From the IMG/VR virus record IMGVR_UViG_3300031920_000359: a DNA stretch of 64,000 nt; one strand, 5' to 3'. This document shows, one piece after another, positions 38,667 to 62,445 of the stretch. Made by a program: the position numbers and the translations under genes. This stretch comes from a virus. Numbering within the stretch: position 1 is the stretch's first letter; each line of letters opens with the position of its first letter. The notes under the pieces were generated by a model. The model saw only the letters and a list, made by a program, of their open reading frames with translations. It was not told the DNA's origin and searched no databases.

Positions 38667-39626
38667 TTGATGATAACGCCGAATCTTTTGTTTAGTTCAA
38701 AATTTGATGATGATGTAGTAATTAGTGAGCCATATATTGAAAATGGTGTATGGAAGCAAAAAGTTAATGGAATAGAGATTGTAAGTAATTATGATTGGGC
38801 TACTGATTTTCCTGGTAATAGTGGTTTGAATTATTTTAATTATGATGTTAATTCTGATAAAGTTTTAAGTAATTATGTTGAGACTAATATTGAAACTGTT
38901 ACAGATAACCAAGGCAATGAAATAAAAGCTTTACATCAAGTAGTAAAAATGGATGATCCTGGTAATGCAGGTATTACACAAAATCAATATAATGTTTTCC
39001 CTGTTGATGATGAAACTATGGGAAATTTGAAATATTTATATATGAGTTATGATATTAAATTACAAGAAAATCTAATTGATGTTTTATCTCAGCGTATCTT
39101 AATGGAGTGGGATAATACTGATTATCGTTGGAGCTTATATATTGTTAAAGATATAACGGGAACTCCTGTTTGGCATCTTCAAGGTGAAACGATAGAAGGT
39201 GGTGAAGTTATTATAGATTGGACTGAAAATAATAATAACGTTACTGTGCCGGTTGGTGAATTTTTTAAACTTGAAATATTTTGGAAACATAGTAGCGATG
39301 TAGACGGTCGAATATGGGTTGCTGTAAATGGAGTAGATGTTTTCTATCATAGAGGAACAAATAAGATTGACCATAAAATTGGTGTGTGGAATCCTATTAA
39401 AATGTTAGGTTCATTAGAATTAGGCTTACAAGAACAATGGATTACTAATGTTGAAATATGGGATGATATACCACTATCTGAAGTAAAAGAAGAAAGTAAC
39501 TTGCTTTTATATGCAGCACTTGCTGGTCTTGGATTACTAATATGGACAAATGACAATGACTATGATGAAGAGTATGAAGAAAGAAAACGAAAAGCTGCTA
39601 GAGCAAAGAAAAAAAGTAGGAGCTGA
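38667..39626 (+). CDS. Concanavalin/polysaccharide-lyase-like domain protein with C-terminal TM anchor
   Basis: FKLEIFWKHSSDVDGRIWVAVNG; LLLYAALAGLGLLIW plus basic tail. Confidence 0.5.
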   Translation: MMITPNLLFSSKFDDDVVISEPYIENGVWKQKVNGIEIVSNYDWATDFPGNSGLNYFNYDVNSDKVLSNYVETNIETVTDNQGNEIKALHQVVKMDDPGNAGITQNQYNVFPVDDETMGNLKYLYMSYDIKLQENLIDVLSQRILMEWDNTDYRWSLYIVKDITGTPVWHLQGETIEGGEVIIDWTENNNNVTVPVGEFFKLEIFWKHSSDVDGRIWVAVNGVDVFYHRGTNKIDHKIGVWNPIKMLGSLELGLQEQWITNVEIWDDIPLSEVKEESNLLLYAALAGLGLLIWTNDNDYDEEYEERKRKAARAKKKSRS

Positions 39627-39631
39627 ATAGT

Positions 39632-40396
39632 ATGATAAAAGATCAAGACATAGAGTTTCTTGTTAATAATCATATGTTAGATAAACATACGCATTTAGAT
39701 AACTTATTAGCTGCAAATGTCACGGTTTTACTTGAAATAAAAGATAAAATGAAAGACATTTCTTTTGATGCAAGTGAAATAGGTGATATCAATGTTGCAG
39801 TAGACCTCGATGCACTAATAGCACGTATTGATGAAGGCATTATTACTTTTTCAAATGACAATAAATATTATGGTAGTTTAGTTGGTAGCGAAGGCTACGC
39901 ATTAGGTTCTGCTGATGTAAATGGTATGGTTAGTGTGATGGTAGGAACTAATGCCTATCCTTGTATAGCAAAGGAAAATATTTTAAAATTTGAAAAAGTT
40001 GCACTAATTGGTGGTACTGATGATGAACCACATGTTATTTCAGCTTTTAAAGGTGTTAGAACTAATGAAGTCGATGGGTTGTTGAATTATTCGATAACAA
40101 ATACACTAACACATTTTTCTAATATTGTTGATGATATTAAATTTGGTATAGTAACTCTTCATGTTGCAAATACTTTAGACCAAGATGTAGTCATACAAAT
40201 GAGAGGCAACATTTTAAATTCTAGAGAAGGAGCAATTGAAATGGGAACATCGTTTACAGTTTTATCTTCGAATTATGCAGCTAGAACCATAACTACAGTA
40301 GGCGATGGTTGGATGCCATACGTTTACTTTGAAGCAACTTGTGCTACAGCTCCAACAAGCGGAAACATAACAGGCAAGTTCTCAATGCGAACATAA
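39632..40396 (+). CDS. Structural protein, helical N-terminus plus beta-sandwich
   Basis: ORF track; strand pattern. Confidence 0.5.
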   Translation: MIKDQDIEFLVNNHMLDKHTHLDNLLAANVTVLLEIKDKMKDISFDASEIGDINVAVDLDALIARIDEGIITFSNDNKYYGSLVGSEGYALGSADVNGMVSVMVGTNAYPCIAKENILKFEKVALIGGTDDEPHVISAFKGVRTNEVDGLLNYSITNTLTHFSNIVDDIKFGIVTLHVANTLDQDVVIQMRGNILNSREGAIEMGTSFTVLSSNYAARTITTVGDGWMPYVYFEATCATAPTSGNITGKFSMRT

Positions 40397-40433
40397 TTAA
40401 TATGATTAATATAAGTTATTGAGGTGATATGAA

Positions 40434-42206
40434 ATGGGAACTACTTATTATATTGATTGGGAGAACGGTGACGATGCAAATGATGGTATCACTAAAGATA
40501 CTCCCTGGCAGCGAGCACCAGGGATGCGTGGTTGTTGGGTAGGGGATACTGGTGGCAACGCCAATGCTAAACGAATTGCAGGTGGTGTCGCTGGAGACCA
40601 ATTCATTCTTAAAGGTGGTGTAACTTGGCCCAAAGAAGCACTCTCATGGGACTGGTATTTCGGATCAGGAACAGAAGCCGACCCTATTTATTTCGGTGTT
40701 GATCTGACATGGTACTCCGGTGCTTCATGGTCACGACCAATATTAGATGTTCAAGGGACTGAAACCAATATGAGTCCCGAAGGTATTGTGTCTATGATGC
40801 GCGCATATGGAAATCGGCATGTCATTGATAATATTGAGTTTACAGGTGTTGCTCAACTGCATGGTGGAAATAATGGCTATGGTGCTACAATGTTATCTCA
40901 TGGTACGTCTTCGCCATCAGGCGGTGAGATTAAAAACTGTTACTTCCATGGGTGGTCACATGGACCAACAACTGCCGGTATATGGGATTCTGGTGTAGAT
41001 GCAGGGCAAATTGCAGGAGATAATTCTAGAGTTATCAACACTGGTACAATAGGTGGAGAGCCCGACTTTGATCTGAAGGTACATCACAATGTAATCGATG
41101 GGTCTGATACCACTGGTGATATGATACAGGCGTATCGGGGGTCTGCCGGACATTTCTATAACAACTATATTGGGTACACATCTAACGGTATTATTACAGT
41201 TAATCTTGGTTATGTTTGGGGGAACACCTTCGATCATATAGCAGTAAATGATACAAATAAAACATGCCCCGGATATCCTGATGGATATTTCTCTTTTTGT
41301 TGTAGTATGCATGGGAATGGGATTGAAACCTATGGGACACAGTATCCGATCTATAACAACCTATTTTCATCTATAGGGGGTGGATCCAATTTAATCCTGT
41401 ACCCAACAGCCTTGGATACTACATACATTTTCAACAATGTTATTTATAATGACACTAATTGTACGATGCAACTTGGAGCGCAGTCTATGACTGAAGATAA
41501 TATCGCTGGATATTATATTTTTAACAATACAATACAAAATAGTTTTTATGGATGTACTATAAGTGGTCCTGCACAAACCTATGAATTTTCATTTAGTACA
41601 ATCCAGAATAATCACGTGATTGGTTCACCATATCTGGATGATAGCTTAATCGCCATGGTAGCAACAACTCTAATAGTGATTCCTAACATTGAACACACGC
41701 CTGAAGAGGCAACCAGCGCAGGATATGCTTCATCCGGAACATATCCATATCTACCTCCAGCGGGAGGAGTAACCGTTGGGGCTGGTACGAATTTGCAAAG
41801 TATCGCAGCAGGAATTCCCTCCACAATAATATCAGATGCAGCAACGGCAGCGTTGAGTGATACGTCCTGTGGGGTCGAGTACGATGCAATCAATCATATT
41901 ATTATTGGTCAAAAAAGAACTCCAATAGTAAGGGGTTCTGTTTGGGACATTGGTGCTTATGAATACGAAACACCCTCTGTCGCTTGTGAAAATGTAATTT
42001 GTGATGACATATGTGATGGTACTACTAGATATTATAACGGAATCTGCGATCCTGAAACAGGTGAATGTCTTTACGCTTTTGAAGAAAATTCAATAGATTG
42101 TGGATATATCCCGCCTGATGAACCCATAGAAGAAACACCTATTATGACTTATGTTATGATTGGTGGTATTGGTTTAACATTGTTAAGTATACTTAGTAAG
42201 AAATAG
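40434..42206 (+). CDS. Parallel beta-helix (pectin-lyase-like) protein with Cys cassette and tail anchor
   Basis: YYIDWENGDDANDG, xHHNVID-type repeats, WDIGAYEY, CENVICDD cassette, YVMIGGIGLTLLSILSKK. Confidence 0.75.
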   Translation: MGTTYYIDWENGDDANDGITKDTPWQRAPGMRGCWVGDTGGNANAKRIAGGVAGDQFILKGGVTWPKEALSWDWYFGSGTEADPIYFGVDLTWYSGASWSRPILDVQGTETNMSPEGIVSMMRAYGNRHVIDNIEFTGVAQLHGGNNGYGATMLSHGTSSPSGGEIKNCYFHGWSHGPTTAGIWDSGVDAGQIAGDNSRVINTGTIGGEPDFDLKVHHNVIDGSDTTGDMIQAYRGSAGHFYNNYIGYTSNGIITVNLGYVWGNTFDHIAVNDTNKTCPGYPDGYFSFCCSMHGNGIETYGTQYPIYNNLFSSIGGGSNLILYPTALDTTYIFNNVIYNDTNCTMQLGAQSMTEDNIAGYYIFNNTIQNSFYGCTISGPAQTYEFSFSTIQNNHVIGSPYLDDSLIAMVATTLIVIPNIEHTPEEATSAGYASSGTYPYLPPAGGVTVGAGTNLQSIAAGIPSTIISDAATAALSDTSCGVEYDAINHIIIGQKRTPIVRGSVWDIGAYEYETPSVACENVICDDICDGTTRYYNGICDPETGECLYAFEENSIDCGYIPPDEPIEETPIMTYVMIGGIGLTLLSILSKK

Positions 42207-42238
42207 GATTGAAATATATAAATTATTGAGGTAAGAAA

Positions 42239-42787
42239 ATGGGAAAATTGAAACCTTTGTCAGAAGACTTGGTTGGAGTTGATATTGATGGTAAAGATGC
42301 TATTACTGCAAATGCTTTTATATATGGACAAGAATCAAGTGGAATATCACATCCTGTGCATGTTGATAATAATGGGGATATTATAATATCAGGTTCTTCT
42401 GGTACTACTGTTTATGGTGATAAAATTCCTACTGCCTCTTGTGCGGCGGGAGCAGCAATTCAATTTGATATTACTTCATTTTATGATTTAGTTACATTAA
42501 ATCAAGTAGGTATTACGCAATTAGTTGCCGGAACTTATAACTATACCCTTGAAATATGGGAAAAAGATTCTGGGGGATATACACCAGGTACTTATACTGA
42601 CCATTATTTAAAGATATTCAGTCGAGATATTGACGTTAGAGAATACCGTGAAAACATTGATATGGGATTACTTTATCGTGACAGAGATGCTACAGGAGAA
42701 TTACATATGAGAATAATAAATACTGCCGCACCATTAGGTACAACGTCAGCTTTTAATATAAGCATAGTCGGCACAATATCTGGATAA
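42239..42787 (+). CDS. Beta-rich structural protein
   Basis: ORF track; strand pattern. Confidence 0.5.
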   Translation: MGKLKPLSEDLVGVDIDGKDAITANAFIYGQESSGISHPVHVDNNGDIIISGSSGTTVYGDKIPTASCAAGAAIQFDITSFYDLVTLNQVGITQLVAGTYNYTLEIWEKDSGGYTPGTYTDHYLKIFSRDIDVREYRENIDMGLLYRDRDATGELHMRIINTAAPLGTTSAFNISIVGTISG

Positions 42788-42822
42788 GAGACTAAGTAGA
42801 AAAATACGATAACATAAGAGGT

Positions 42823-44505
42823 TTGATAAATATGACTGATTATTATGTAAAAAATGGCGGGAATGATGGTGATAGTGGACTAAGTGATGCTGAAGCATGG
42901 GAAACTATTACTCATATGAATAGTATAAATTTTGCAAACAATGATATTATTAATTTAAAACGCAATAGTATTTTCATTGATGCAACATTAACATTAAATT
43001 CTACTGTTGTAGGACGAAGTGGAATTACTGTACAAGACTATGGTATTGGAAATAAACCGTGGATTAATGGTAATTTTGTGCAACCAATCAAGATAGTTCA
43101 TGTCTTGATTAATCTAACATTAAAAAATATAGATATAAGTGGGCAAGATTGGTTAGTAACAAAGGGAGATAATATTGATTTAGATAATATAAATGGTATA
43201 GTTTTAGATGGAATTGAAGGAAATGGTTGGTATAATTATAAGGGAGTCAATCAGGGCAAAAACGCTATTACAATGGCCTATTGTTCTGGACATATAGAAA
43301 TTAAAAATTGTAATTTATATAATTGGGGATTGCTTACATTGCCAGTAAGTGGTGGCACAGATTATTGTGCGATACATTTATCACAACACGATAATGGAAT
43401 ATTGTTAATTCATAACAACATTGCACATGATTTACAAGCAGATGCTGTTCAAAGACAATTTTGTTCTGCACCAATGGAATTATATCATAATACATTTTAT
43501 AATTGTGGTGAAAATTGTTACGATGATAAAGGAAGTGAAAATTCAAAAATTTATGAAAATAATTTTTATCGTGATCTTGATTTTACTGGCCCAGGACAAC
43601 ATGAAGGATTTTTAGTGACATATCATGGAGAAGTTACAACTGAATCAAAAAATCATGAGCTTTATAATAATTATTTTTCAGATACCGAATTTCCTGCTGT
43701 TTGGATATCTGGTTTATTAGTGGCAAATATTAACAATATAGATATACATCATAATTATATTTTAAATTGTGCTTCAGCATTTAAAATAGGAAGCAACACT
43801 AACAATGTATCAATTTATAATAATTGTATTAATGGAACGTTTGGTGTTGGTGGTAGATTTTATTATGAAAACAATGCAAATTTAGGCATAAAGGTATATA
43901 ATAATACGTTTTATAGTGAAAATCAAATGAGTTATGGTGTTTGGTTACAATATTCAAATGCTGAGTTTATTAATAATATTTTTTATATGAATGATTCAAA
44001 CTCTTATTTATTATATAAAATAGCAGGAAACCCAACATTATCAAATAATATTTGGTATAATAATGCAAATACAGATTATTTATATTGGGAAGGTACTGTT
44101 TATACTGTATCACAACTAGCAAATTGGCTTACACAAGGACATTCAGAAGAACAATTTACTAATCCTCTTTTTGTTAATATAACAAATAATGATTTTAATT
44201 TACAAGCTACTTCACCTGCAAAAGATGCTGGCGTTGATGTCGGGCTACCTTTTGTTGGTGTAGCTCCTGATATAGGGGCTATTGAATATGGACTATCAGA
44301 TCCATGTGAAAATGTAATTTGTGATGATATATGTGTTGGAACCACTAGATATCATAGTGGTGTCTGTATTGATGGAGAATGTCTTTATGCTTTTGAAGAA
44401 AACTCAGAAGAATGTGGATATATATCAGAAGGATTATCAACAACGCAGTATCTTATGATAGGTGGAGTAGGAATAGCTTTGTTAAGTTTGCTTAGTAAGA
44501 AATAG
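42823..44505 (+). CDS. Parallel beta-helix protein with Cys cassette and tail anchor
   Basis: YYVKNGGND..SG, many I.NN.F repeats, PDIGAIEY, CENVICDD cassette, YLMIGGVGIALLSLLSKK. Confidence 0.8.
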   Translation: MINMTDYYVKNGGNDGDSGLSDAEAWETITHMNSINFANNDIINLKRNSIFIDATLTLNSTVVGRSGITVQDYGIGNKPWINGNFVQPIKIVHVLINLTLKNIDISGQDWLVTKGDNIDLDNINGIVLDGIEGNGWYNYKGVNQGKNAITMAYCSGHIEIKNCNLYNWGLLTLPVSGGTDYCAIHLSQHDNGILLIHNNIAHDLQADAVQRQFCSAPMELYHNTFYNCGENCYDDKGSENSKIYENNFYRDLDFTGPGQHEGFLVTYHGEVTTESKNHELYNNYFSDTEFPAVWISGLLVANINNIDIHHNYILNCASAFKIGSNTNNVSIYNNCINGTFGVGGRFYYENNANLGIKVYNNTFYSENQMSYGVWLQYSNAEFINNIFYMNDSNSYLLYKIAGNPTLSNNIWYNNANTDYLYWEGTVYTVSQLANWLTQGHSEEQFTNPLFVNITNNDFNLQATSPAKDAGVDVGLPFVGVAPDIGAIEYGLSDPCENVICDDICVGTTRYHSGVCIDGECLYAFEENSEECGYISEGLSTTQYLMIGGVGIALLSLLSKK

Positions 44506-44520
44506 GATTAGTGATATCAG

Positions 44521-45207
44521 ATGGCGGGACTTGTAGTTAAAAATAATATTGAAAGTTTGGTAGTAAATGCTCCGTTGGCTGCTGGAGTACTTACTTTAAA
44601 TGTTACAGCTGGAACTGGTGTTAGATTTCCTGCTACATTTCCGTATCGTATAACTATATGGGATGAAGTTACTTATCCTGATCCTACTGATGATTCAAAT
44701 ATGGAAGTTGTGCATTGTACTAATCGAGTGGTTGACGCTTTAACTATTACTAGAGCAGCTGAAAGTACGACTGATGTATCACATGCAGCAGGTTCGAGAG
44801 CATCAATGTTAATTACTGCAGCACATTTTAATGATCCTACTTATGGTCTTCAATCTCAAATTGATGCTATTACTTGCCAAAAAGAAACTTTGACAAAAAC
44901 TAACGATTATACTATCGTATCAGATGATTTGTGTAAATCTTTAAGAATGAATTCAGCAATTGCTAAAACTTTTACGTTTCCTTCCGTTGGTGCAACGGAT
45001 GACGGAATGAGAATTACCCTTATAAAAATTGGTGCAGGTCGGCTTACTTTACAAATGGTAGATACGGATAAAATACACAATTCTTCTGCTACAGGGACAA
45101 TGTATAACGAAGAGGCAGCAGAAATATTTGCTCGTGTTGACGCAGAGTATTGCCACACCACAACTACTTGGAACGTACTTGCATCAGGTACTTGGATAAC
45201 AACATAG
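44521..45207 (+). CDS. Fibre/baseplate-like structural protein
   Basis: TLTITRAAESTT...H.AG and TLTKTNDYTI...TFTFP motifs typical of virion fibre proteins. Confidence 0.45.
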   Translation: MAGLVVKNNIESLVVNAPLAAGVLTLNVTAGTGVRFPATFPYRITIWDEVTYPDPTDDSNMEVVHCTNRVVDALTITRAAESTTDVSHAAGSRASMLITAAHFNDPTYGLQSQIDAITCQKETLTKTNDYTIVSDDLCKSLRMNSAIAKTFTFPSVGATDDGMRITLIKIGAGRLTLQMVDTDKIHNSSATGTMYNEEAAEIFARVDAEYCHTTTTWNVLASGTWITT

Positions 45208-45245
45208 ATATACCAATAAATCTTAGTTTTGAGAGGAAATGAACT

Positions 45246-46778
45246 ATGTCAAATATGAGAGTAACCCATATGTTATATACTGATGCAGCTGCTCCTCCTC
45301 CTGTAACTGCTTTTATTTCTGTTTGGGATACGTCAACCACATATACCGGTTCAAGTGCTGCAGACCAAGTTAAGTTACCTCTTGAACTTAGTGGAAATTA
45401 TAATTTTACAGTAGATTGGGGTGATACAAATTCTGATACTATTACAATTTGGAATGAAGCTGCAACAACTCATACTTATGCAGTTCCTGGTATATATACA
45501 ATATCAATTGAAGGAACTATTACTGGATGGAGATTCAATAACGGAGGAGACGATAGGAAAATTACTGATGTAACAAATTGTGGATGTTTAAATGTTGGTA
45601 ATAATGATAGTTACTTCCAGGGTTGTTCAAACCTTGTTTGGACAGCAACTGATGCATTAGATACAACTGGTACAACTAATATGTACCAAATGTTTTATAG
45701 TGCTCGTGTTTTTAATGGTGATATAGATAATTGGGATGTATCAAGTGTAACCGATATGGATAGTATGTTTTATTATGCTTTTGATTTTAATCAAGATATT
45801 GGTGGTTGGGATGTATCAAGTGTAACAAATATGGATAATATGTTTTATTTTGCTGAAATGTTTAATCAAGATTTAGATTCTTGGGATGTATCAAATGTTT
45901 TAACAATGAAATTTATGTTTAGTTATGCACTTACCTTTAATGGTAATATAAGTTCTTGGGCTGTATCAAGTGTTACATTAATGCCTGCAATGTTTAATGA
46001 TGCTTTTGATTTTAATCAAGATATTGGTGGTTGGGATGTATCAAGTGTAACAAATATGGATAATATGTTTGCTGGTGATATTGCATTCAATCAAGATATA
46101 AGTTCTTGGGTTGTATCCAGTGTAATAAGTATGGATGGTATGTTTGCTAGCACTATTGCATTCAATCAAGATATAAGTTCTTGGGATGTATCAAGTGTTG
46201 CATCAATGCATGGTATGTTTGATAGTGCAACAGCATTTAATCAAAATATCGGCGGTTGGAATGTTGGATTAGTTACAAATATGGATTATATGTTTTTGGG
46301 AGCAACATTATTTAATCAGAATATTGGTGGTTGGAACATATCAAATGTTACAACAATGAATAGAATGTTCCGTGATGCTATTGCATTTAATCAAGATATT
46401 GGAAGTTGGAATGTTGGATTAGTAACAGATATGGATTATATGTTTTATGGTGCAACATTATTTAATCAGAATATTGGTGGTTGGAATGTTGGATTAGTTA
46501 CAGATATGGAACATATGTTTGAAAATGCTATTGCTTTTGACCAAGATATAGGTGGTTGGGATATAACATCATTATTATATGCTTTAAATATGTTTACAGG
46601 TATTGCACTTTCAACAGCAGACTATGATGCTCTTTTAATTGGTTGGGAAGCACAAGTAGAACAACCAAATGTTACATTTAGTGGTGGTAATAGTACATAT
46701 AATGCTGGAGCTCCTGCTACAGCAAGAGCAGCTTTGGTGGCTAATGGTTGGGTTATAACTGATGGTGGGCAAGTATAA
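45246..46778 (+). CDS. BspA/DUF285-type repeat surface protein with PKD-like N-terminus
   Basis: Twelve 25-aa F(N/D)QDIGGWDVSSVTNM..MF-type units; VDWGD...HTY. Confidence 0.9.
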   Translation: MSNMRVTHMLYTDAAAPPPVTAFISVWDTSTTYTGSSAADQVKLPLELSGNYNFTVDWGDTNSDTITIWNEAATTHTYAVPGIYTISIEGTITGWRFNNGGDDRKITDVTNCGCLNVGNNDSYFQGCSNLVWTATDALDTTGTTNMYQMFYSARVFNGDIDNWDVSSVTDMDSMFYYAFDFNQDIGGWDVSSVTNMDNMFYFAEMFNQDLDSWDVSNVLTMKFMFSYALTFNGNISSWAVSSVTLMPAMFNDAFDFNQDIGGWDVSSVTNMDNMFAGDIAFNQDISSWVVSSVISMDGMFASTIAFNQDISSWDVSSVASMHGMFDSATAFNQNIGGWNVGLVTNMDYMFLGATLFNQNIGGWNISNVTTMNRMFRDAIAFNQDIGSWNVGLVTDMDYMFYGATLFNQNIGGWNVGLVTDMEHMFENAIAFDQDIGGWDITSLLYALNMFTGIALSTADYDALLIGWEAQVEQPNVTFSGGNSTYNAGAPATARAALVANGWVITDGGQV

Positions 46779-46811
46779 GTTATTATAAATAAATTATTAT
46801 GAGGTATTATT

Positions 46812-47249
46812 ATGGCAGGAAAGAATACGTTTGGAATTGATTTGACTGAAGAATTGAAAACACCACCGCCTATTGGTGGAACTACTCCTTCGACAGTTGC
46901 AGCAACGACAGTTAATACTGATATGCTTATTGAAACTGTTAAAGCACATGGAACTATAGCAACGGGTACAGAAGATTTTGATCTTGATAATGGCCCATAT
47001 CATACAGTTACAGCCGGTGGTGACTTTACAATAACATTTTCTAATTGGATAGCTTCAGGAGAGGTAGTTTCAATTACAATTAAATTAATTAACGCTGGTG
47101 CTCATACTATTACTTGGCCAGGAACAGTCGATTGGCCTAGTGGCACTGAACCATCTTGGACAGCAGCAGGTACAGATTTTGCTATATTATTTTCAGAAGA
47201 TGGTGGTACAACCATTTATGGAAAACGTTCAATGACAGACGTCAAATAG
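46812..47249 (+). CDS. Fibre-associated structural protein
   Basis: ITWPGTVDWPSGTEPSWTAAGTD motif typical of virion fibre proteins. Confidence 0.5.
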   Translation: MAGKNTFGIDLTEELKTPPPIGGTTPSTVAATTVNTDMLIETVKAHGTIATGTEDFDLDNGPYHTVTAGGDFTITFSNWIASGEVVSITIKLINAGAHTITWPGTVDWPSGTEPSWTAAGTDFAILFSEDGGTTIYGKRSMTDVK

Positions 47250-47457
47250 TATTTAGTATTATTAAATAGTGAGGTAGTGTATAATGTTTAATCATGCTAG
47301 ATTTAATATGATTAAGTTTAATAGTAAAATTGAAATTCCTATTACACCAACAACATTTGAATCTACTTATGACATAGGAATAACAAGAAGTTCAGTTTGG
47401 TTAGAAAAAATTGTTAGAAGACAATAATTAAATATTAATGATAAAAGGTGATGATTT

Positions 47458-49013: not shown

Positions 49014-49078
49014 ATTATTAGTATTTAAATTATTGGTGTTTAAACTAACAATATTAAAAATATAGAAGGTATATAATT

Positions 49079-49501: not shown

Positions 49502-49504
49502 ACA

Positions 49505-53494: not shown

Positions 53495-53528
53495 GCAAAT
53501 CAATAAACATTTATATAGGACTTTTAAA

Positions 53529-54887
53529 ATGAAAACGAGAATATTATTTATAGTATTAGCAATGTTATTGCTAATAATACCAGCTAATGCAACGTTGGTA
53601 GAAGATTGGCCAATGGGAAAAACAAACGTAATTCCTAATGATACAATAGGAATAATGTATGATTTTGAAGAAGGTAGTAATTGTGAAGTTCCATTTAAGA
53701 ATCAATATCCTGAAGTAGCTAAATTCCTGACAGTTCCGTCTACTCAGTTAGGTATGGGAGATAATCTACCTTCGTATGTTACTGTTGGTGGTTCAATGTG
53801 TGGTACTACAAGATGTTATATGAATATTTACCCTTCTAGTGGAGGAATAGATTGGATATACATTGTAAATAATCGAAGCGCATTTGCACCTGTTCAATTC
53901 AGTGACGGAACTTATGGTGGATTGTTTCCAGGTGAAGGTTGGCCAGGTCAAAAAGCTTCAATCGAATTTAAAGAAAATATAAATTACATATCATTTTTAG
54001 CAAGTACAGGAAATGATCTTCGAGTCAGATTATTTAATGCACAAGGTAATTCATATAATTTAATTCATTCAGATACAATACATGTAAATTATTATAGAAC
54101 AAATGGAGAACCAAGCAACTTTACACAATTTTCAATTAATACTGGAAATGTAGACATCGACAGAATGGAATTATATGGTCCATTCAACGCTTGGCATATA
54201 GACGATTTAATAGTTGGAACATCATTTGTAGAACAAACACCAAATCCCACACAAAAACCTACTCCAAATCCAACACCAAAGCCTACTCCACCACCAACTC
54301 CAGCACCGACTCCAGCACCGACTCCAGAATCTGAACCATATACGGATTATACTTATGTTGCAGAGAATGCAATAAAACTGATTGGTGAAGAGTATCAAGA
54401 ACACATGTTGGGATATGATTATACTTCAATGGAATATATGAAAGTTGAAATATTTGGATATTTAATGGACTTTTGGAATCCAGTCACAAAATCATTTGAA
54501 TATGGTAGTGGAATAAGCGATGAAGGATTAATTATCTGGTCATATAACCAACCTTATTTTAATGATGATGGAAACAAAGATTTAATAAAATGGTGTACAT
54601 CAGAAGGGATGAAAAAACACGACTTCACAATCGAAGTAGATACTCTTGATATTCGACCTAGCGATGTATTTTTCATTGATAGTAATAATGATGATAGAGC
54701 AGATACAATAGGTATGGTTATAAAATCAGATGTTGGAGGAACAAATATTATAATATCAGAAGAAGGATATGGTGTTCACACAAAATATAGCCATATCATA
54801 GAATCTACCCCAGGATTCATGGGATATTTCAGATTACCTGAAAAAATAAATGGTGGTCACAATCCAATTCCAAAATCCAACAAGTAA
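53529..54887 (+). CDS. Secreted protein: signal peptide, beta domain, Pro/Thr linker, degenerate NlpC/P60-like domain
   Basis: MKTRILFIVLAMLLLIIPANA; PTPAPT linker; A.KLIGEEY...SDEGLIIWSY...RPSDVFF...DTIGMV. Confidence 0.55.
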   Translation: MKTRILFIVLAMLLLIIPANATLVEDWPMGKTNVIPNDTIGIMYDFEEGSNCEVPFKNQYPEVAKFLTVPSTQLGMGDNLPSYVTVGGSMCGTTRCYMNIYPSSGGIDWIYIVNNRSAFAPVQFSDGTYGGLFPGEGWPGQKASIEFKENINYISFLASTGNDLRVRLFNAQGNSYNLIHSDTIHVNYYRTNGEPSNFTQFSINTGNVDIDRMELYGPFNAWHIDDLIVGTSFVEQTPNPTQKPTPNPTPKPTPPPTPAPTPAPTPESEPYTDYTYVAENAIKLIGEEYQEHMLGYDYTSMEYMKVEIFGYLMDFWNPVTKSFEYGSGISDEGLIIWSYNQPYFNDDGNKDLIKWCTSEGMKKHDFTIEVDTLDIRPSDVFFIDSNNDDRADTIGMVIKSDVGGTNIIISEEGYGVHTKYSHIIESTPGFMGYFRLPEKINGGHNPIPKSNK

Positions 54888-54921
54888 AAATAACTAATAA
54901 GTAAGAATAACTAAGGAGTAA

Positions 54922-55461
54922 ATGAACATGAGAAAAATAATAAGTATTTTAATGATATTGATGTTAATAGGTGTAGCATCAGCAGCGGTCTATGTAACAA
55001 CTAATCCAGAAGCAAGAGCATTCTTTACCCGAAACCAACCAGGGCCAGATGTATCCCCAATTGTAACAATGTTTAATAGCCCAACAGGATGGTCTAATAG
55101 TGTTGATTTTGGTACAATGGAGTCAAACTATTTTGAAAAGCAATTGAGTCATAGAAACATCGATGCATCAAATTTCACAGGTATTATAAGATTCGATGTC
55201 GAATGTGCAGAAGGATTGGTTGATAATGGAGCAGGTGGAATAAAAGATTTTGCAGATTTAGTTTACAACCATCCTAACTTAAATTCATATTCGTGTAATA
55301 ATGAATCCTGTGTTGAACGAATATCGAGTACAAAAATCACAGTTATACCAACGAATGAAACTTTTACATTTGTACCAGATGAACTAGTATTATCAAGCAT
55401 GAAGATTGAATTCATCGATATGGCATATGGTGATTATACAGTTACAGTATATGTAGAATAA
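54922..55461 (+). CDS. Secreted hypothetical protein
   Basis: Signal peptide MRKIISILMILMLIGVASA. Confidence 0.65.
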   Translation: MNMRKIISILMILMLIGVASAAVYVTTNPEARAFFTRNQPGPDVSPIVTMFNSPTGWSNSVDFGTMESNYFEKQLSHRNIDASNFTGIIRFDVECAEGLVDNGAGGIKDFADLVYNHPNLNSYSCNNESCVERISSTKITVIPTNETFTFVPDELVLSSMKIEFIDMAYGDYTVTVYVE

Positions 55462-55511
55462 TAAATTGAAAGGATGAATTTAAAATATAGCAAACTAAAT
55501 GAGGGTATAAT

Positions 55512-56813
55512 ATGGAATTTATTGCAAAACAACTAACTACTACCACAGATTCAAAGAGATTTCCTAAATTTAAAATATATGAAAATAAAATATATTATGT
55601 TTGGAACGAATATGATGTAGATGATTTTGCACAGATTTGGTTTGCTACATCAAATTTAGATGGTTCTGAGTTTATTAAAACACAATTAACTAATTATACA
55701 ATAAGTTCACTAGAACCTGAATTTTATATTTATAATAATTTAATGTATATAACATGGCACGCTTTTGAAGAAACAACTACTAAAAATCAAATATATATTG
55801 CATCTGTGCAATTGGATGGTTCAAATTTAACAATTTTATATAACACGACTCATTCAAATGGAGCGAGAAGACCAAAAATTGCAGTAAAGAACGATATAAT
55901 ATATTTAGCATACGAAGCGAGCTATTATAATGGAACTTATTATCATCACATGATGAGGGGAAAGTTAAACTTAGATGGTACTAATTTTAGTTCTATAGCA
56001 GCATCATCTAGTCCAAATGAAGTAGTATATAATGTAGAACTTTTTGTACCAAAAGACCCAATTGATACTAAGATTTATTATATATGGACCAGACGATATT
56101 TTATCGGTGATCCAGCCGGTGTACATATATGGTCAGCCGATGATGATTTATCTAATTTTACCAACATAGAATATATAGCCAACAAAACATCAAGAAATTT
56201 ATATGTAGTAGGTACTATATTATATTTTAGCATCAGTGGACTTTTTTGTAAAATTAACACAGATGGAAGTAATTATGAAGAACTATTATCACGTAGTTTT
56301 TCAATATTTCAAATAACAGATGATCTTGTAGACTTTGCCATTTCAAATCAAACAAGTTCTGATTATCCAACAAAAACATATCAATTATTATCAGCTTTTT
56401 ATAATATAAGCACAGAAGAATATTCTGAAACAGAATTAGCAAATGAACTTGTTACGGGCTTTAATGATAATATAAATTTACAATTTACTGAAAATAATAA
56501 CGATTTATATTATGTTTGGCAACAATATGATGAAAATAATAGATATCAGATATGGTTAGGTATATTAAGCGATGATTTACCAAATCTCTGTGAAAATGTA
56601 ATATGTGATGAATTCTGTGATGGTACAACTAGATATTATAATGGAATCTGTAATCCTGAAACAGGTGAATGTTTATATGATGTTGAAGAAAACTCTGAAG
56701 ATTGTGGATATATACCACCTGATGAACCTAAAACATCATCATTTCCTTGGTGGATGTTAGGTTTCTTACTATTACTACGTAATGATGACGATGAAAAGAC
56801 ATATAGAAGATAA
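55512..56813 (+). CDS. Beta-propeller-like protein with Cys cassette and tail anchor
   Basis: Repeated IYYVW/QIW..S..DG blades; CENVICDE cassette; FPWWMLGFLLLL. Confidence 0.65.
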   Translation: MEFIAKQLTTTTDSKRFPKFKIYENKIYYVWNEYDVDDFAQIWFATSNLDGSEFIKTQLTNYTISSLEPEFYIYNNLMYITWHAFEETTTKNQIYIASVQLDGSNLTILYNTTHSNGARRPKIAVKNDIIYLAYEASYYNGTYYHHMMRGKLNLDGTNFSSIAASSSPNEVVYNVELFVPKDPIDTKIYYIWTRRYFIGDPAGVHIWSADDDLSNFTNIEYIANKTSRNLYVVGTILYFSISGLFCKINTDGSNYEELLSRSFSIFQITDDLVDFAISNQTSSDYPTKTYQLLSAFYNISTEEYSETELANELVTGFNDNINLQFTENNNDLYYVWQQYDENNRYQIWLGILSDDLPNLCENVICDEFCDGTTRYYNGICNPETGECLYDVEENSEDCGYIPPDEPKTSSFPWWMLGFLLLLRNDDDEKTYRR

Positions 56814-56836
56814 AAAGCCATATAGGTGTTATATAA

Positions 56837-57718
56837 ATGAATTCTTTACAAGTAGGTACTAGTTTCAATCAATATGATTGGTGTAACGCACAAATTAAAT
56901 GTGGTGATATACTAGATGTAGCGTGTTCAGAATTTATAGATGATGGCACAGGTATAACAGTTTATTTTTTATATAATGCTACAGGTTGTGATTATATATC
57001 AAAAAGCAACTTAGTTATTAGTATAAAACCAAGTGGTAGTACAAAATGGAAAATCTGGGAAACATATGAAATACCTGAAAATGAAGGATTTACTTACAAA
57101 GCAATAGAAATTATAGATGGAACAAATAATGAATTTAAAGTTACATATAAAGAAATAACCAAATATTTCAATGTAATAGAATATTGTCCAGAAATTGATT
57201 GCTATGAAATTAGTTTAGAAAAAAATCAATGTTATCAAGGTGACACCATATACGTAGAGATTATAAACTGTTTCACAATAAATGAAGACGTCAATTGGTA
57301 TCATGAATGGTTTATAGATGGTATACAAATAGATAATAACACAAGACATTATATTATTCAAACTAATAATTTAAGTATAGGTGAACACACAATTTCAGCA
57401 AGAGCATTAACCTATTGTGGAACAAGTTCTGAATTATTATCCACACTATTTATAGTAGATAATCCAAGCGACTATTGTGATGAAACAACATGTGATAATT
57501 ATACTTTATATTCACTCAAAGGAGTATGGGATACTAACTATAACACAGTAGCATGTATAAAAGATGTTTTACTAAAAGAAAACTCAATAGAATGTGGATA
57601 CGAAGAATCAGAAGACCCAGAAGATCCAGAAGATCCAGAATTAGAAGATACCTATTATCTTAAATTTGTTGCATACTCTACTTTAGCTCTTGCAACAATA
57701 AGAATGCTGCGTGATTAA
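56837..57718 (+). CDS. Ig/PKD-like tail-anchored protein
   Basis: WFIDG...GEHTISARA; related Cys linker ending ENSIECGY; C-terminal TM. Confidence 0.6.
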   Translation: MNSLQVGTSFNQYDWCNAQIKCGDILDVACSEFIDDGTGITVYFLYNATGCDYISKSNLVISIKPSGSTKWKIWETYEIPENEGFTYKAIEIIDGTNNEFKVTYKEITKYFNVIEYCPEIDCYEISLEKNQCYQGDTIYVEIINCFTINEDVNWYHEWFIDGIQIDNNTRHYIIQTNNLSIGEHTISARALTYCGTSSELLSTLFIVDNPSDYCDETTCDNYTLYSLKGVWDTNYNTVACIKDVLLKENSIECGYEESEDPEDPEDPELEDTYYLKFVAYSTLALATIRMLRD

Positions 57719-57761
57719 AAAAATAAAATTATTAAGAAAAATTAAGAAGGAGAAATAAGTA

Positions 57762-58583
57762 ATGCCATGTATACCACAATATTATATAAGAGTAGGTAAT
57801 TACTATGATGACAGTTGGGGAGGAGCAGTGCAACTTGTTGATGTTACTTTTGATTTAAGTTTAGCAATGCTCAATGTTTATACCCCATTTGGTACCTATG
57901 AAGATAATATTCAAATAAATAAAAATAGTAGTAAAAGTTTTACTGATGGAACAAAAGTATATACTATATATGTTGGAAACATATTACGAGACCCCGATAG
58001 TGCAAATTATTTTGCACAATTATATATGTGTTATGAAGATGTAGTAAACCAAGAAGAAGGATTCCTTGTAATGGAAGAGTTTACATTTTTAGATGAAAAT
58101 AATATTATAATAGATAAAGCTCTTTCTGGAGAAATTGTTCATGCAAATTTTGTAGTAAAAAATCTAGGTGGCATAGAAGATAAATTTTGGGTTATTGTTA
58201 ATATAGGGTCAAATGTTGTATATAATAATACGTTTATTCTTGAACTAAATCAACCTGGAGATATAACTAAAACTATTATAACAGATTCTTGGACAATGCC
58301 AAATGAGGCAACAGAATTAACTATATCTTTAAACCATTTAAATTCAACAGGCTTAACATACACAGAAGATAATCGTTATGAAAAAATGTTATTACATGAA
58401 GATGATATTCCATGTGTTCCTAATTGGCAATGCGAATATCCACTAAATGGTTATGAAGAAGATGGCTGTGGAAGTAGAAGAGAAAACGATTATTGTTTAC
58501 CAATAGAAAAAACTAGTAACAACTCATATCTCATATTAGGCGGTTTAGGTTTAGCATTATTAGCAACGATGAGTAAAAAATAA
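57762..58583 (+). CDS. Tail-anchored protein (S-layer-like/CARDB-like domains)
   Basis: VKNLGG..D; CVPNWQCE...DGCG; YLILGGLGLALLATMSKK. Confidence 0.6.
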   Translation: MPCIPQYYIRVGNYYDDSWGGAVQLVDVTFDLSLAMLNVYTPFGTYEDNIQINKNSSKSFTDGTKVYTIYVGNILRDPDSANYFAQLYMCYEDVVNQEEGFLVMEEFTFLDENNIIIDKALSGEIVHANFVVKNLGGIEDKFWVIVNIGSNVVYNNTFILELNQPGDITKTIITDSWTMPNEATELTISLNHLNSTGLTYTEDNRYEKMLLHEDDIPCVPNWQCEYPLNGYEEDGCGSRRENDYCLPIEKTSNNSYLILGGLGLALLATMSKK

Positions 58584-58596
58584 AGGTGAGATATAA

Positions 58597-58773
58597 ATGT
58601 TTGATACAACAAATCCTCTATGGTTACCCGCAGGTAGTGTAAGAGCAATATTAGCTCTTGGTGTCGTTACGACATATTCGTATGTTTGTGTTACAACAGA
58701 AAATTATGAAGCTTTAGGTTTAGTTGCAGTAATGGTTATGCAAAACTATTTCCACAAGAAAGAAACCACATAA
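58597..58773 (+). CDS. 58-aa two-TM holin-like membrane protein (below ORF-track cutoff)
   Basis: Hand translation MFDTTNPLWLPAGSVRAILALGVVTT...LGLVAVMVMQNYFHKKETT; GGTGA RBS. Confidence 0.55.
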   Translation: MFDTTNPLWLPAGSVRAILALGVVTTYSYVCVTTENYEALGLVAVMVMQNYFHKKETT

Positions 58774-58790
58774 AATGAGGTAATATTACT

Positions 58791-59456
58791 ATGAAACAAA
58801 TTTGTGCATCAGATTTACATTTAGGTTATGAAAGAGCCAACTATGATAAAATATGCAAACTATTCGATATAGCTAAAGATAAATCTGATGAACTTATTTT
58901 ATGTGGTGATACCTTTGACCTTTGGCGATACCCTGTATCAAAAATAGACAAAACAACAATGATAGGATTCAAAGATTGTTTAAATAAACTAAAAGAAACA
59001 GCTAATGAAATACCTGTAAAAATAATAACAGGAAATCACGATTATAATTTACAAAAAGTTTGGAAGAATCTAAGAAAAGACTACAACGTTGAAATAACAG
59101 ATAGTTTTTATCAAGGAAATATTTATTATACACACGGCTGGCAATTCGATATAAAGCAAAGATTAGGTAGTTTTGCTTATTCATGGATAATAGATAAATT
59201 TCCTTATTTTTATCAAAAATTATTTAAAACGCCTGTTCAAATGGGTTTAATAAAAGATGATAAATTTAATTTTTTTATTGAAAAAGTACATCATGAAGCA
59301 GAAAAATTTGCTATTAATAATACTTTAAAATATGTAGTTATGGGACATACCCATATACCAACAATATTCAATAAAGTAATTAATTGTGGTGATTTTATAG
59401 ATTCATGTAGTTATGTAGTTATCAAAGACAAAAAAATCGAAATGAGGTATATTTAA
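58791..59456 (+). CDS. Calcineurin-like metallophosphoesterase
   Basis: SDLHLG, GDTFD, GNHD, THG, GHTH. Confidence 0.9.
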   Translation: MKQICASDLHLGYERANYDKICKLFDIAKDKSDELILCGDTFDLWRYPVSKIDKTTMIGFKDCLNKLKETANEIPVKIITGNHDYNLQKVWKNLRKDYNVEITDSFYQGNIYYTHGWQFDIKQRLGSFAYSWIIDKFPYFYQKLFKTPVQMGLIKDDKFNFFIEKVHHEAEKFAINNTLKYVVMGHTHIPTIFNKVINCGDFIDSCSYVVIKDKKIEMRYI

Positions 59457-59457
59457 A

Positions 59458-60096
59458 ATGGATAATATAACTTTAGCCACAATTGCTAATTCTGTTGAAC
59501 AAATAAACAAAAGACTTGATGATTTACATAATAGATGTAATGAAACAAATGCAACGCTTAGATTATTAATAACAGAAAACAATAATTCACACAGCGATTT
59601 AAATAGAAAAATAGACCAAGCTTGTCGATTAATAGCAAAAGTTGATAAAGACTCATCAGTTTGTTCACAAAAACTAGACGACCATTTAAAACACCATAAA
59701 AAAGAAGACAATAGAGCAAACATAAACGGAGTAAAGATTACAAGTATGGTAGGTAATTTTATCAGCGCAGCAATAGCAGCTACAGCAGTTTTATATTCAA
59801 CAGGAACAATTTAAAATTATTGATGATAACTATGAAAAAATAAAAGGTAGTGATAATAAATGTATGACAGAAATCTAAAAGATGGACAACAAGTCGGATG
59901 GCAAGAAGGCGGAAGAGGACTAAATCAAGTAGACGAATGTAGAAATCCGACAGAATACATTCAAAGATTTGATGCAACAAATACATATCAATTAAGTGAT
60001 GATATTGGAGAAGAACCAACAGATTGCACGACCAAGTTTCTATTAATAATCGGAGCAGGATTAGTATTATTAAAATTAATAAACAAAAAGGAGTAA
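59458..60096 (+). CDS. Coiled-coil plus TM protein (59458-59814) and small tail-anchored protein (59860-60096)
   Basis: Heptads with C-terminal hydrophobic helix; FLLIIGAGLVLLKLINKKE. Confidence 0.6.
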
Positions 60097-60105
60097 TGAT
60101 ATATA

Positions 60106-62445
60106 ATGGTAGAATGTAGCGATGAAGCAAATATTTGGATAGGAGAAACAAGGGTAGATAACTTTGGGGGAGAAATACAACTAATTGATATAGCTGTTGA
60201 TTTAGAATCTTGTTATGTTAATATAGAAACCCCTTGGGGTGACTCTTATTCAGGGATCGAAATAAACAAAGGAAACTCCAAAACATATACTAGTAACGGA
60301 AAAACATATTCAGTACATATAGTCTCGCTCCATGATACTACTTGGGGATATGCGGCAAGAATATATACTTGTTACGACTTTGTCGAATATTTAGATACAA
60401 CATTATCTATGAGATATGACAGCTCTGAAAGCCAACTAGTAGAAGAAGGTAAAATTGCTTTTGACTTATCGTTAAAAGATGAAAACAATGTTGTTTTAGT
60501 GTATAGTGTTGATATGTACATAAATAATGTATATGAACGAACAATATATCCTGATGATAAATATATACATTACATAACACCTGAAGAATTAGGTAACACA
60601 CTTACGTTCCAAGTAAAATTTGATGGTTTAGGTGTATATAATGCTTCTCAATCAAGCACTGTGTCAGTAACTATACCTAGTAAATCAGAAACTAATTTAA
60701 GCATAATTGCAGACAAAACTAATATTGTTATAAATGAAACAGTAACTTTTACTGGCACATTAAAAGATGATAGTAACAATATACTACCGAACCAGGGTAC
60801 ACTATATTTAGTATATAAAGGAACAGATGGTTCATATGGTTATGTATTAGACAAAGATGGATATAAAATAATTGCAAGCACAGACTCAAGTGGTAATTAT
60901 TATAGACCATGGGAAGCAACAGAAGATTATTTAGAACAGTCTATATATGCAATTTGGTATGAAGGTAGTGATGATTACAATAGTAGTTATAGTCCTAATA
61001 TCACACTTAATATTTCATTAGATGAATGTATTCAAAATATAAAAATACAAGACCAAGATTATAATCCTGTCGAAAATGTAACAATAACAATAGATAGTGT
61101 TATTGAAACAACAGATATTGATGGTTTAGTGTCGTTTACTTTAATAAGAGATGTAGAATATACTGTATATAAATCATATGGAGATTATTCTGGTGACGAT
61201 GTAATAATAGGATGTAAATTAGACCCACAAATATTACATATTGTTACACAAGAATTTGCAGTAACTGGATTAGAATTATCACAATTTGTTTTTGAAGACC
61301 GAACAGTAGTAAGAGCCGATGTTGCCGCAACTGGAACAGGTTCATATAGAATTAAAATAGATGGTGTTCTTGAATGGGGATCACATAACTATCCAGAAGA
61401 AACTTCTGTTGATATTTATGATCTAACACTAGCAAACCATACAATATGTGCAGATACTATATGTAAAGACATTGATTTAAGCGAACCAGTTCCTAAATGT
61501 ATTGATTATTTAACACAAGAAGAGTGTGAAGACAATGATTGTTATTGGTGGTCTGATAATACTTGTCAATCTTCACCAGAAGGAACAACTGATTATTTAG
61601 ATATTTATATTAAACCATATTCATGGTATGATGATAAATATGAAGAAGCTTTAAATTCAGCACTAATTTTAATTACAGATTTAAGTGGCAAAGTTACAAA
61701 CTATATGTCAGACATAACAGGATATGAATATAATGGTGTTGATATATTAGAAGATACAAACAAAAATATAATAATTGTTCGTATATATCTAAAAGATATA
61801 AATGAAGCAGCGTTAGTCGCACCTCTTGTTATAGCAGGACTCGCAGTCGTTACTGGAGCAGTACTAATTGGTATTGGTTTTGTTATAGGCACAAGTCTAA
61901 ACCCTTTTAGTAGTGACGATGTTAAAAATCTCGTTGCAGAGATTGTTAAAAACGCTAAGATAGATGCATATGAACATGCCTATGATATTGATAAATCAGT
62001 AGCAACTAGTTTAATAGAATGTTTAGAAACAATAGAAACTTGTGAAGATAGTTTAACTTGTTTTGAAAACAATGGAGTAACACCTTCTGTAGAGAACCAA
62101 ATGGAAGCATTAGTTGCATATGAAACAGTAGTAGATGCTGCTTATACCGGAGCTGCTGACATATTTGATAACGAAGAATTTGAAACAATTTCAGCAGCGA
62201 CAATAGCACGACTTGAACTTGTAATAACAAAACTAGAAGAAGCAACCATAACACCAGAAGGAGCTGCTTGCGAAGCTAGTAATATTGTAGATGATAGTAT
62301 TGATGATTTAGAAGATATAATAATAGAAGACTGTGTCTTTGATATGTTTGGTGAATGTATAGTAACCAAAAGTGCATTAAACACAATGCTATTAATAGGA
62401 GCAGGTGCCGCAGCTTTAATAGGTTATTCAGCAATCAAGAAATAA
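60106..62445 (+). CDS. Large Ig-like repeat protein with internal and C-terminal TM segments
   Basis: N-terminal domain paralogous to 57762; Ig-like TFTGTLKD..TDSSGNY; Cys linker; MLLIGAGAAALIGYSAIKK. Confidence 0.65.
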   Translation: MVECSDEANIWIGETRVDNFGGEIQLIDIAVDLESCYVNIETPWGDSYSGIEINKGNSKTYTSNGKTYSVHIVSLHDTTWGYAARIYTCYDFVEYLDTTLSMRYDSSESQLVEEGKIAFDLSLKDENNVVLVYSVDMYINNVYERTIYPDDKYIHYITPEELGNTLTFQVKFDGLGVYNASQSSTVSVTIPSKSETNLSIIADKTNIVINETVTFTGTLKDDSNNILPNQGTLYLVYKGTDGSYGYVLDKDGYKIIASTDSSGNYYRPWEATEDYLEQSIYAIWYEGSDDYNSSYSPNITLNISLDECIQNIKIQDQDYNPVENVTITIDSVIETTDIDGLVSFTLIRDVEYTVYKSYGDYSGDDVIIGCKLDPQILHIVTQEFAVTGLELSQFVFEDRTVVRADVAATGTGSYRIKIDGVLEWGSHNYPEETSVDIYDLTLANHTICADTICKDIDLSEPVPKCIDYLTQEECEDNDCYWWSDNTCQSSPEGTTDYLDIYIKPYSWYDDKYEEALNSALILITDLSGKVTNYMSDITGYEYNGVDILEDTNKNIIIVRIYLKDINEAALVAPLVIAGLAVVTGAVLIGIGFVIGTSLNPFSSDDVKNLVAEIVKNAKIDAYEHAYDIDKSVATSLIECLETIETCEDSLTCFENNGVTPSVENQMEALVAYETVVDAAYTGAADIFDNEEFETISAATIARLELVITKLEEATITPEGAACEASNIVDDSIDDLEDIIIEDCVFDMFGECIVTKSALNTMLLIGAGAAALIGYSAIKK

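Follow-up and report, generated by a model that had tools for sequence, protein, structure and literature searches.

Pleolipovirus-type spikes are type I membrane proteins, with a cleavable signal and a C-terminal anchor, that are exported through the host membrane. Sulfolobus polyhedral virus 1 (SPV1), P23-77, and HCIV-1 are membrane-containing viruses, and we know of no series of membrane-anchored adhesins in viruses of these types. Tail-anchored membrane proteins, which occur in eukaryotes, bacteria, and archaea and are inserted by Get3/TRC40/ArsA or YidC-type routes, have no N-terminal signal and are held by one span in the last ~40 residues, with the bulk of the protein N-terminal to that span. 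Vaccinia H3 is a viral protein of this kind: without a signal and held by a tail anchor, it is an attachment protein that binds heparan sulfate and is exposed on the membrane of the mature virion (PMC6336343). Here, we examine eight proteins encoded between positions 38667 and 62445 of a 64,000-nucleotide stretch of IMG/VR virus record IMGVR_UViG_3300031920_000359, which had been predicted from the sequence to be tail-anchored. This 64-kb stretch, hereafter the window, belongs to a 77,161-bp contig of a marine sediment metagenome and has a G+C content of ~30%, with nearly all genes on the plus strand. The combination of a C-terminal anchor with the absence of an N-terminal signal is a real and conserved feature of this locus. 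The reading that we put first, and that we hold with evenly balanced confidence, is that the eight are structural proteins tail-anchored in a virion membrane that a large, tailless, probably archaeal virus assembles in the cytoplasm.

Signal-less proteins with C-terminal anchors

The reading frames of all eight proteins are present in the window, and each protein is named here by the first nucleotide of its frame. They are listed below together with a ninth tail-anchored protein (59458), which was absent from the earlier list (the original prediction), and two signal-bearing neighbors as contrast cases (53529 and 54922).

38667-39626, plus strand: 319 amino acids (aa), signal-less; span at aa 279-294 (nucleotides [nt] 39501-39548), then a 25-residue acidic/basic tail
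40434-42206, plus strand: 590 aa, beta-helix-like N-terminus; six-cysteine cassette at nt 41985-42107; anchor at nt 42141-42197, then KK
42823-44505, plus strand: right-handed beta-helix, 557 aa from the ATG at 42832; cassette at nt 44305-44421; anchor at nt 44449-44496, then KK
53529-54887, plus strand: 452 aa; classical cleavable signal with an A-N-A site; no C-terminal anchor (contrast case)
54922-55461, plus strand: 179 aa; classical signal with an A-S-A site; no C-terminal anchor (contrast case)
55512-56813, plus strand: 433 aa, weak GH43-like head; cassette at nt 56589-56711; 10 hydrophobic residues at nt 56748-56777, then an acidic/basic tail
56837-57718, plus strand: 293 aa; divergent cassette at nt 57476-57601; 12-residue hydrophobic end at nt 57665-57700, a doubtful span
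57762-58583, plus strand: 273 aa; N-domain paralogous to that of 60106; anchor at nt 58524-58574, then KK
59458-59814, plus strand: 118 aa; coiled coil; 18-residue hydrophobic C-terminus at nt 59758-59811, no basic end
59860-60096, plus strand: 78 aa; hydrophobic core at nt 60037-60072 plus K-L-I-N to nt 60084, 16 residues in total, then KKE
60106-62445, plus strand: 779 aa; four-cysteine CYWW element at nt 61498-61566; Gly/Ala-rich segment at nt 61807-61899; anchor at nt 62383-62436, then KK

The N-termini of the eight set them apart from the two contrast cases. Within the first 35 residues, the best 12-residue hydrophobicity was ≤1.23 in all eight, vs 3.60 in 53529 and 3.04 in 54922, confirming the prediction that the set lacks Sec signals and that these two neighbors have textbook ones, with A-x-A cleavage sites. 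Cryptic N-terminal signals, which the original prediction had named as the result that would overturn it, were not found: the frames are already maximal, making upstream extension impossible, and conservation of the N-terminal domains among 19 homologues of 60106 begins at residue 2. Cryptic upstream starts and frameshifted tails were rejected on the same maximal frames and on the lack of any alternative tail in the other reading frames. In P0037, a relative, residues 2-48 align with residues 26-72 of the pectate lyase PelN, just past the expected position of the signal. In contig L024, of the same lineage, at least one of the encoded anchored proteins bears a classical signal; because the lineage does use such a signal on an anchored protein, its absence is specific to these tail-anchored proteins. 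The longest frame of 42823 begins with TTG, and the database protein (557 aa) begins at ATG 42832, immediately before a Y-Y-V beta-helix start motif, which makes this ATG the likelier true start.

At the C-termini, an uncharged span of 16-19 residues closes 40434, 42823, 57762, and 60106, with only KK between it and the stop codon. The 16-residue span of 59860 has one internal lysine and is followed by KKE, and that of 38667 leads into the 25-residue tail, which is acidic first and basic after. In these six, a single C-terminal span is followed by 2-25 residues, within the limit of ~40 that we took to define a tail anchor. The hydrophobic runs of 55512 (10 residues) and 56837 (12 residues) fall outside this definition, and both spans are doubtful because runs of this length are too short for crossing a bilayer. 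The claim that all eight tails consist of a hydrophobic helix and a charged tail thus largely holds: it stands for the six with credible spans and is doubtful for 55512 and 56837. One protein, 60106, is an exception among the eight in having a second, internal hydrophobic segment.

The tails also share a motif. Five had been said to fit one regular expression; 40434, 42823, and 57762 do so exactly, and 59860 and 60106 are each one position off. All five align on a G-x-G core, [YFT][LVM][MIL][IL][GI]G.G, and the tails have three parts, motif, apolar helix, and basic cluster, placed at the very end of the protein. At the codon level, the pattern of the three-member motif matched only at the 3 sites with exact fits, vs 0.00 expected from 100 shuffles. 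The same codon-level scan of IMG/VR returned 14 unrelated tails and no family, and PHROGs held no family for the seven tail-anchored proteins scanned (59860 left out).

The ninth protein, 59458-59814, combines its coiled coil with an 18-residue hydrophobic end. The tail of 55512 (56748-56810), composed of P-W-W, ~8 apolar residues, a run of aspartates, and basic residues, recurs nearly unchanged in the unrelated metagenomic protein P0112. We regard it as a conserved second type of tail, not a decayed anchor, because P0112 carries nearly the same one.

A six-cysteine cassette shared with signal-bearing proteins

Cysteine-rich linkers had been attributed to the bodies of the eight proteins. We define this linker as a domain of ~46 residues with six conserved cysteines, ending in C-G-Y and often then P-P-D/E; it is present in 40434, 42823, and 55512 and as a divergent copy in 56837, so that the attribution holds for part of the set. 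No Pfam or NCBIfam model matches the cassette. Searching with a profile built from cassette and anchor yielded 355 representative proteins at E ≤ 1e-3, of which 113 reached E ≤ 1e-10. Cassettes are frequently arranged in tandem, with up to 10 copies in a protein and 390 domain copies in the 149 best proteins.

Proteins with the cassette include secreted, type I, PGF-CTERM-like, and signal-less ones. Sorted by their ends, the 149 best hits comprise 68 proteins with no signal and a C-terminal anchor, 20 with a signal and an anchor, 31 with a signal only, 23 with neither, and 7 that do not start with methionine and were left unclassed. The signal-bearing proteins, 51 of these 149, include the Nanoarchaeota protein P0026. 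Two signal-bearing proteins gave weak matches to sorting models: P0029 matched PGF-CTERM at E 5.7e-4 with 19.5 bits, under the 24.5-bit cutoff, and P0150 matched Heimdall-CTERM at E 5e-3, below the curated cutoff. As signal-bearing members, among them P0029 and P0026, carry the cassette, we read it as an exoplasmic-type stalk of archaeal surface proteins.

Signal-less and signal-bearing anchors differ in length. The uncharged span had a median of 16 residues in signal-less proteins vs 21 in signal-bearing ones (p 1.2e-9), and the difference persisted after clustering of the tails (43 vs 20 clusters, p 2.6e-8). Flank charges were alike in both groups, with about -3 N-terminal and +2 C-terminal to the span. 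The strict motif (Y-h-h-h-G-G-h-G...KK) was limited to the signal-less group, where 16 of 68 proteins carry it, vs 0 of 20 with a signal. By these comparisons, the signal-less anchors are a distinct short-span class.

A scan of a genome collection for the cassette pattern gave 71 loci, mostly in Myxococcota, and only one of these, L076, holds real cassettes. It is a virus-like stretch of small genes within a bacterial metagenome bin (WOR-3, JAGLZA010000188.1), and it codes for P0038, a protein with three cassettes, no signal, and a C-terminal anchor, together with a dockerin-like cassette protein. This stretch is either mis-binned or a hint to the host.

Conservation across related contigs

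Contigs L018/L022, L020/L021, L023, L024, L026, and L098 are syntenic with the window to varying degrees. On five of these (L020, L022, L023, L026, and L098), orthologues or module-sharing proteins are without signals and have anchors of the same type on unrelated heads. The orthologue of 38667 (L022:5871-6830, 73% identity) keeps both the span and the charged tail. Orthologues of 56837 (L020:8722-9993 and L023:9198-9953) have full G-x-G anchors with KK, and that of 59860 (L020:8252-8704) has a glycine-containing anchor and NKK. The beta-helix protein 42823 (Pfam Beta_helix PF13229, E 2.8e-11) is 45% identical over 555 residues to signal-less P0030 on L098. The small coiled-coil protein 59458-59814 is kept in all relatives; its orthologues, at 54-58% identity, adjoin a Metallophos gene in L020, L022, and L023. 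The signal-bearing 53529 and 54922 have no orthologue in the related contigs.

In nucleotide comparison, 40434 and 42823 proved to have anchors copied recently, with 80% nucleotide identity; between pairs further apart, the residues are the same and the codons differ. Neither IMG/VR nor GenBank phages yielded relatives of 42823 or 40434, and a word-based search with the C-terminal module of 42823 returned the window's own proteins only; the exhaustive profile search did find relatives.

The most conserved gene cluster of the lineage (58791-62445; L018, L020, L023, L024, and L026) encodes a calcineurin-like phosphoesterase, the 118-aa coiled-coil tail-anchored protein, and a 60106-family protein (with a small tail-anchored protein). 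This cluster may serve in entry or egress. Elsewhere, two large genes adjoin tail-anchored beta-helix genes, one encoding a 2141-aa giant beta-helix/DUF2341 protein (L024:797-7222) and the other an 896-aa glycosyltransferase-methyltransferase fusion (L098:7294-9984).

The 60106 family

Other assemblies yielded 19 homologues of 60106. Every one of them starts within a few residues of a conserved cysteine, has no signal, and carries both an internal Gly/Ala-rich segment of ~30 residues and a G-x-G anchor with a dibasic end. The domain order in 60106 is N-domain, immunoglobulin (Ig)-like domain, CYWW, alpha/beta domain, 31-residue Gly/Ala-rich segment, helical bundle, and anchor. Relatives have PEGA, CarboxypepD_reg, and Ig-like domains. 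Across the family, variable heads of Ig or PEGA type sit on a conserved core that runs from the four-cysteine CYWW module to the anchor, and the helical bundle comes in two sequence variants.

An AlphaFold2 model of the 60106 core (predicted local distance difference test [pLDDT] 75) contains an alpha/beta domain and a confident helical bundle. This model had no significant structural match in the PDB or BFVD, and pattern scans of IMG/VR, GTDB genomes, and JGI contigs did not find the family. We can only speculate that 60106 might be a class-I-fusion-like or penetration protein.

Genome setting and a candidate capsid protein

Replication proteins of archaeal/eukaryotic type (RFC small and large subunits, helicase, and AAA) fill the first 28 kb of the window. 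The nearest viral RFC is that of haloarchaeal tailed viruses, at 38% identity. For the RFC small subunit, the closest Atlas clusters are spread over many archaeal phyla, which does not resolve the host lineage. An archaeal host is favored on sequence grounds, because the replication genes are archaeal and archaeal proteins carry the cassette with a signal. The late module starts at ~29 kb and is rich in fiber-, lectin-, leucine-rich repeat (LRR)-, and beta-helix-type proteins. Part of the window's proteins were scanned for known virion genes; among these, no terminase, portal, HK97 capsid protein, or packaging ATPase was recognized. Logan contigs lengthen the window by ~0.1 kb upstream and 1.2 kb downstream, and ~13 kb of the contig lies outside the analysis.

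Within the late module, one protein has a predicted fold that resembles those of capsid proteins of membrane-containing viruses.

34372-34872, plus strand: candidate single-jelly-roll capsid protein, with an N-terminal helix and an eight-stranded sandwich

Its product has 34 metagenomic homologues of 163-166 aa at 50-86% identity, on contigs of up to 48 kb, and one homologue was deposited under a Patescibacteria bin. The AlphaFold2 model (pLDDT 90.9) folds into an N-helix and a jelly roll. Exhaustive comparison by VIA-align matched it over nearly its full length with the SPV1 capsid protein (6oj0_T, Z 7.3), and also with P23-77 VP17 (Z 7.3) and an HCIV-1 chain (Z 6.7). Foldseek with the same model returned influenza haemagglutinin heads only. 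The predicted structure is consistent with, though not decisive for, a single-jelly-roll capsid protein.

Next to this gene, a 193-aa protein (34892-35473) consists of two tandem copies of the domain that makes up its 103-aa neighbor (35476-35787), and a P-E-I...I-G-G motif is common to both copies. These products could be capsomer and vertex proteins. Further along, the N-terminal 100-140 residues of the 44521-45207 product match tail-fiber families of tailed phages (phrog_8469, E 3.7e-10); this protein is without an anchor and is 90-93% identical in relatives, and no tail genes were recognized in the scanned proteins.

Proposed mechanism and alternatives

In the reading that we put first, the proteins would be made in the cytoplasm without a signal peptide, and their last 16-19 residues would serve as the anchor, with an aromatic start, a small-residue G-x-G face through which the helices may oligomerize, and a KK end. 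Post-translational insertion would place this anchor in a lipid membrane that is incorporated into the virion within the cell. On the outer side of the membrane would then lie the acidic linker, the six-cysteine stalk, and a head resembling a beta-helix depolymerase, a lectin, or an Ig domain; there, the heads could act in host recognition, and the dibasic end would lie on the genome side. The stalk-linker-anchor unit would be a shuffled module from type I cell-surface proteins, with the signal peptide deleted and the span shortened in the virus lineage. A span this short would be suited to post-translational insertion or to a viral membrane that is thin; the envelope of AFV1, an archaeal virus, has half the thickness of its host's membrane (PMC5517147). 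The motif common to the tails may reflect inheritance of one shuffled C-terminal module instead of the recognized address that had been proposed.

Display on a virion membrane by this mechanism is plausible on these sequence features. Tail-anchoring is the most economical account, given the surface-type heads and stalks, the systematic absence of signals, the distinct short-span class, the swapping of heads, and the late-module position of the genes. We also count in its favor that the genes share this module with fiber-like, LRR, and lectin genes and with the conserved jelly-roll protein, and that the scanned proteins included no recognizable terminase, portal, or HK97 capsid protein.

Among the alternatives, the one that survives best, though we think it unlikely, is that the hydrophobic, glycine-containing C-terminus is a docking or oligomerization helix that plugs trimeric fibers or spikes into a lipid-free protein capsid or vertex. 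Such a helix would account for the short spans (median 16) and their small-residue face, typical of helix-helix packing, and it would sit well with the fiber- and spike-type heads, with the tail-fiber matches of the neighbor 44521, and with the fact that no lipid-related gene was seen. It fits poorly with the signal-bearing relatives, which have ordinary membrane anchors and a sorting-like tail at the same position after the stalk and linker, and with the acidic flank, apolar span, and dibasic end, which are a membrane-type signature in both groups. Many head families, moreover, share the tail, including that of a 78-aa protein with hardly any head.

The second alternative, on which we place still less weight, keeps the membrane and moves the proteins out of the particle, to the cytoplasmic face of the host membrane in the infected cell, where they would act at assembly sites, in egress, or in exclusion. 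Tail-anchor topology leaves heads in the cytoplasm by default, and the conserved cluster of Metallophos, 118-aa coiled-coil, and 60106-family genes could be an egress or membrane-remodeling unit. The heads themselves argue otherwise: beta-helix, lectin, Ig-like, and PEGA heads and six-cysteine stalks are surface and adhesion modules that bear signals in cellular proteins, and, as is typical of proteins for host recognition, they are swapped rapidly while the anchor stays constant.

It is very improbable that the tails are sorting signals cut by a host enzyme of the archaeosortase, exosortase, or rhombosortase type, or that they serve an unconventional export to the surface. The Gly-Gly core recalls the GlyGly-CTERM signal, such signals are likewise laid out as motif, apolar helix, and basic cluster at the end of the chain, and there were weak hits to a 'choice-of-anchor Q' domain beside the cassette. 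All such substrates need an N-terminal signal, however, and this is absent here and in the relatives. The original prediction had itself allowed that the motif might prove to be a known sorting signal, but no Pfam or NCBIfam sorting model matched the 40-residue tails or the whole proteins at E up to 10, even though the same curated library picked up the weak, below-cutoff PGF-CTERM and Heimdall-CTERM matches in the signal-bearing controls, and a known sorting signal was rejected. Nor did Pfam reveal a sortase-like family among the scanned window proteins, and when all plus-strand frames of ≥50 residues were scanned for hydrophobicity, no polytopic membrane protein of sortase size emerged. Poorly supported like the sorting-signal account, an annotation artefact (wrong starts, frameshifts, or chance hydrophobic ends) might be suspected from two TTG starts and two very short tails and is scarcely credible given maximal frames without alternative tails, N-termini and anchors conserved across independent assemblies from several studies, and a motif pattern found 3 times vs 0.00 expected.

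Several points weigh against tail-anchored display on a virion membrane. What is known of the system comes from sequences and predicted structures, and our signal and span calls are hydrophobicity thresholds in place of a trained predictor. The cassette statistics are not fully independent, because the profile contained anchor columns and the motif-bearing hits are relatives. With respect to topology, the tail-anchor route would have to move KK (and, in 38667, a 25-residue charged tail) across the membrane, contrary to the positive-inside rule, and a membrane-spanning second hydrophobic segment in 60106 would leave its head on the same side as KK. Were a capsid shell to lie outside the membrane, heads of 500 residues would need to pass through it. 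Cellular carbohydrate-binding and DOC jelly rolls score equal to the viral capsid matches of 34372, and tailed-virus genes are possible because ~13 kb of the 77-kb contig lies outside the analyzed DNA.

A broader form of tail-anchored display goes further, and we offer it tentatively as something that we doubt more than we believe: a widespread, uncultured lineage of large, tailless jelly-roll viruses of anoxic sediments would mount its whole host-recognition set, comprising depolymerase-like beta-helices, lectins, and Ig-like adhesins, from the cytoplasmic side via one short anchor, and the 60106 family would act in membrane penetration or fusion with a fold not seen before.

Comparison with known systems

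A literature search found no paper on tail-anchored proteins of archaeal viruses, and a preprint on Asgard viruses (10.1101/2021.07.29.453957) concerns different virus groups. The idea of envelope display was called undescribed in the original prediction, a description that is too strong given the precedent of vaccinia H3 on a cytoplasm-made virion membrane (PMC6336343). In the present virus, the anchored proteins combine large adhesin heads with a defined stalk module.

If true, tail-anchored display would be a prokaryotic or archaeal counterpart of poxvirus tail-anchored attachment proteins and would explain how large surface proteins are placed, without Sec, on a membrane built inside the cell. 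Its signature (no signal, six-cysteine stalk, 16-residue G-x-G span, and KK) would find membrane-containing viruses and their receptor-binding proteins in metagenomes. The 21- and 16-residue spans within one domain family are a natural experiment on the route of membrane insertion, and two new families without annotation, both widespread, are the six-cysteine cassette and the 60106 proteins.

Among membrane-containing viruses, SPV1/Portogloboviridae, P23-77, and HCIV-1/SH1 resemble this virus in having a protein with an N-helix and a jelly roll, and the scanned DNA is likewise tailless by gene content. The genome here is three to four times larger than those of SPV1, P23-77, and HCIV-1, and the structural likeness is one of common fold only. 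Pleolipovirus-type spikes have a large ectodomain, a C-terminal span, and a very short inner tail, as the tail-anchored proteins do, and 60106 adds an internal apolar segment and a helical domain to this likeness; the 60106 family differs in being signal-less, and the 60106 core is without a fold match. The three-part C-terminus is shared with PGF-CTERM/archaeosortase, Heimdall-CTERM, GlyGly-CTERM, and LPXTG signals, and signal-bearing cassette relatives weakly match models of this kind, whereas the virus tails come without a signal peptide, without a model match, and with a shorter span.

Vaccinia H3 is likewise signal-less with a C-terminal anchor, and it resides in a viral membrane made in the cytoplasm with its N-terminal domain exposed (PMC6336343). 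It belongs to a eukaryotic virus that uses membranes derived from the endoplasmic reticulum, and the likeness is one of analogy, with no sequence similarity to H3 seen and no search for one made; the corresponding membrane of the virus described here is a presumed one. With tail-anchored proteins in general, the set shares the lack of an N-terminal signal, the single span in the last ~40 residues, and the position of the bulk of the protein N-terminal to it. Unlike them, it numbers six to nine proteins per genome, with large heads of adhesin or enzyme type, and it combines six-cysteine stalks, which are normally exoplasmic, with a signature of aromatic residue, G-x-G, and KK.

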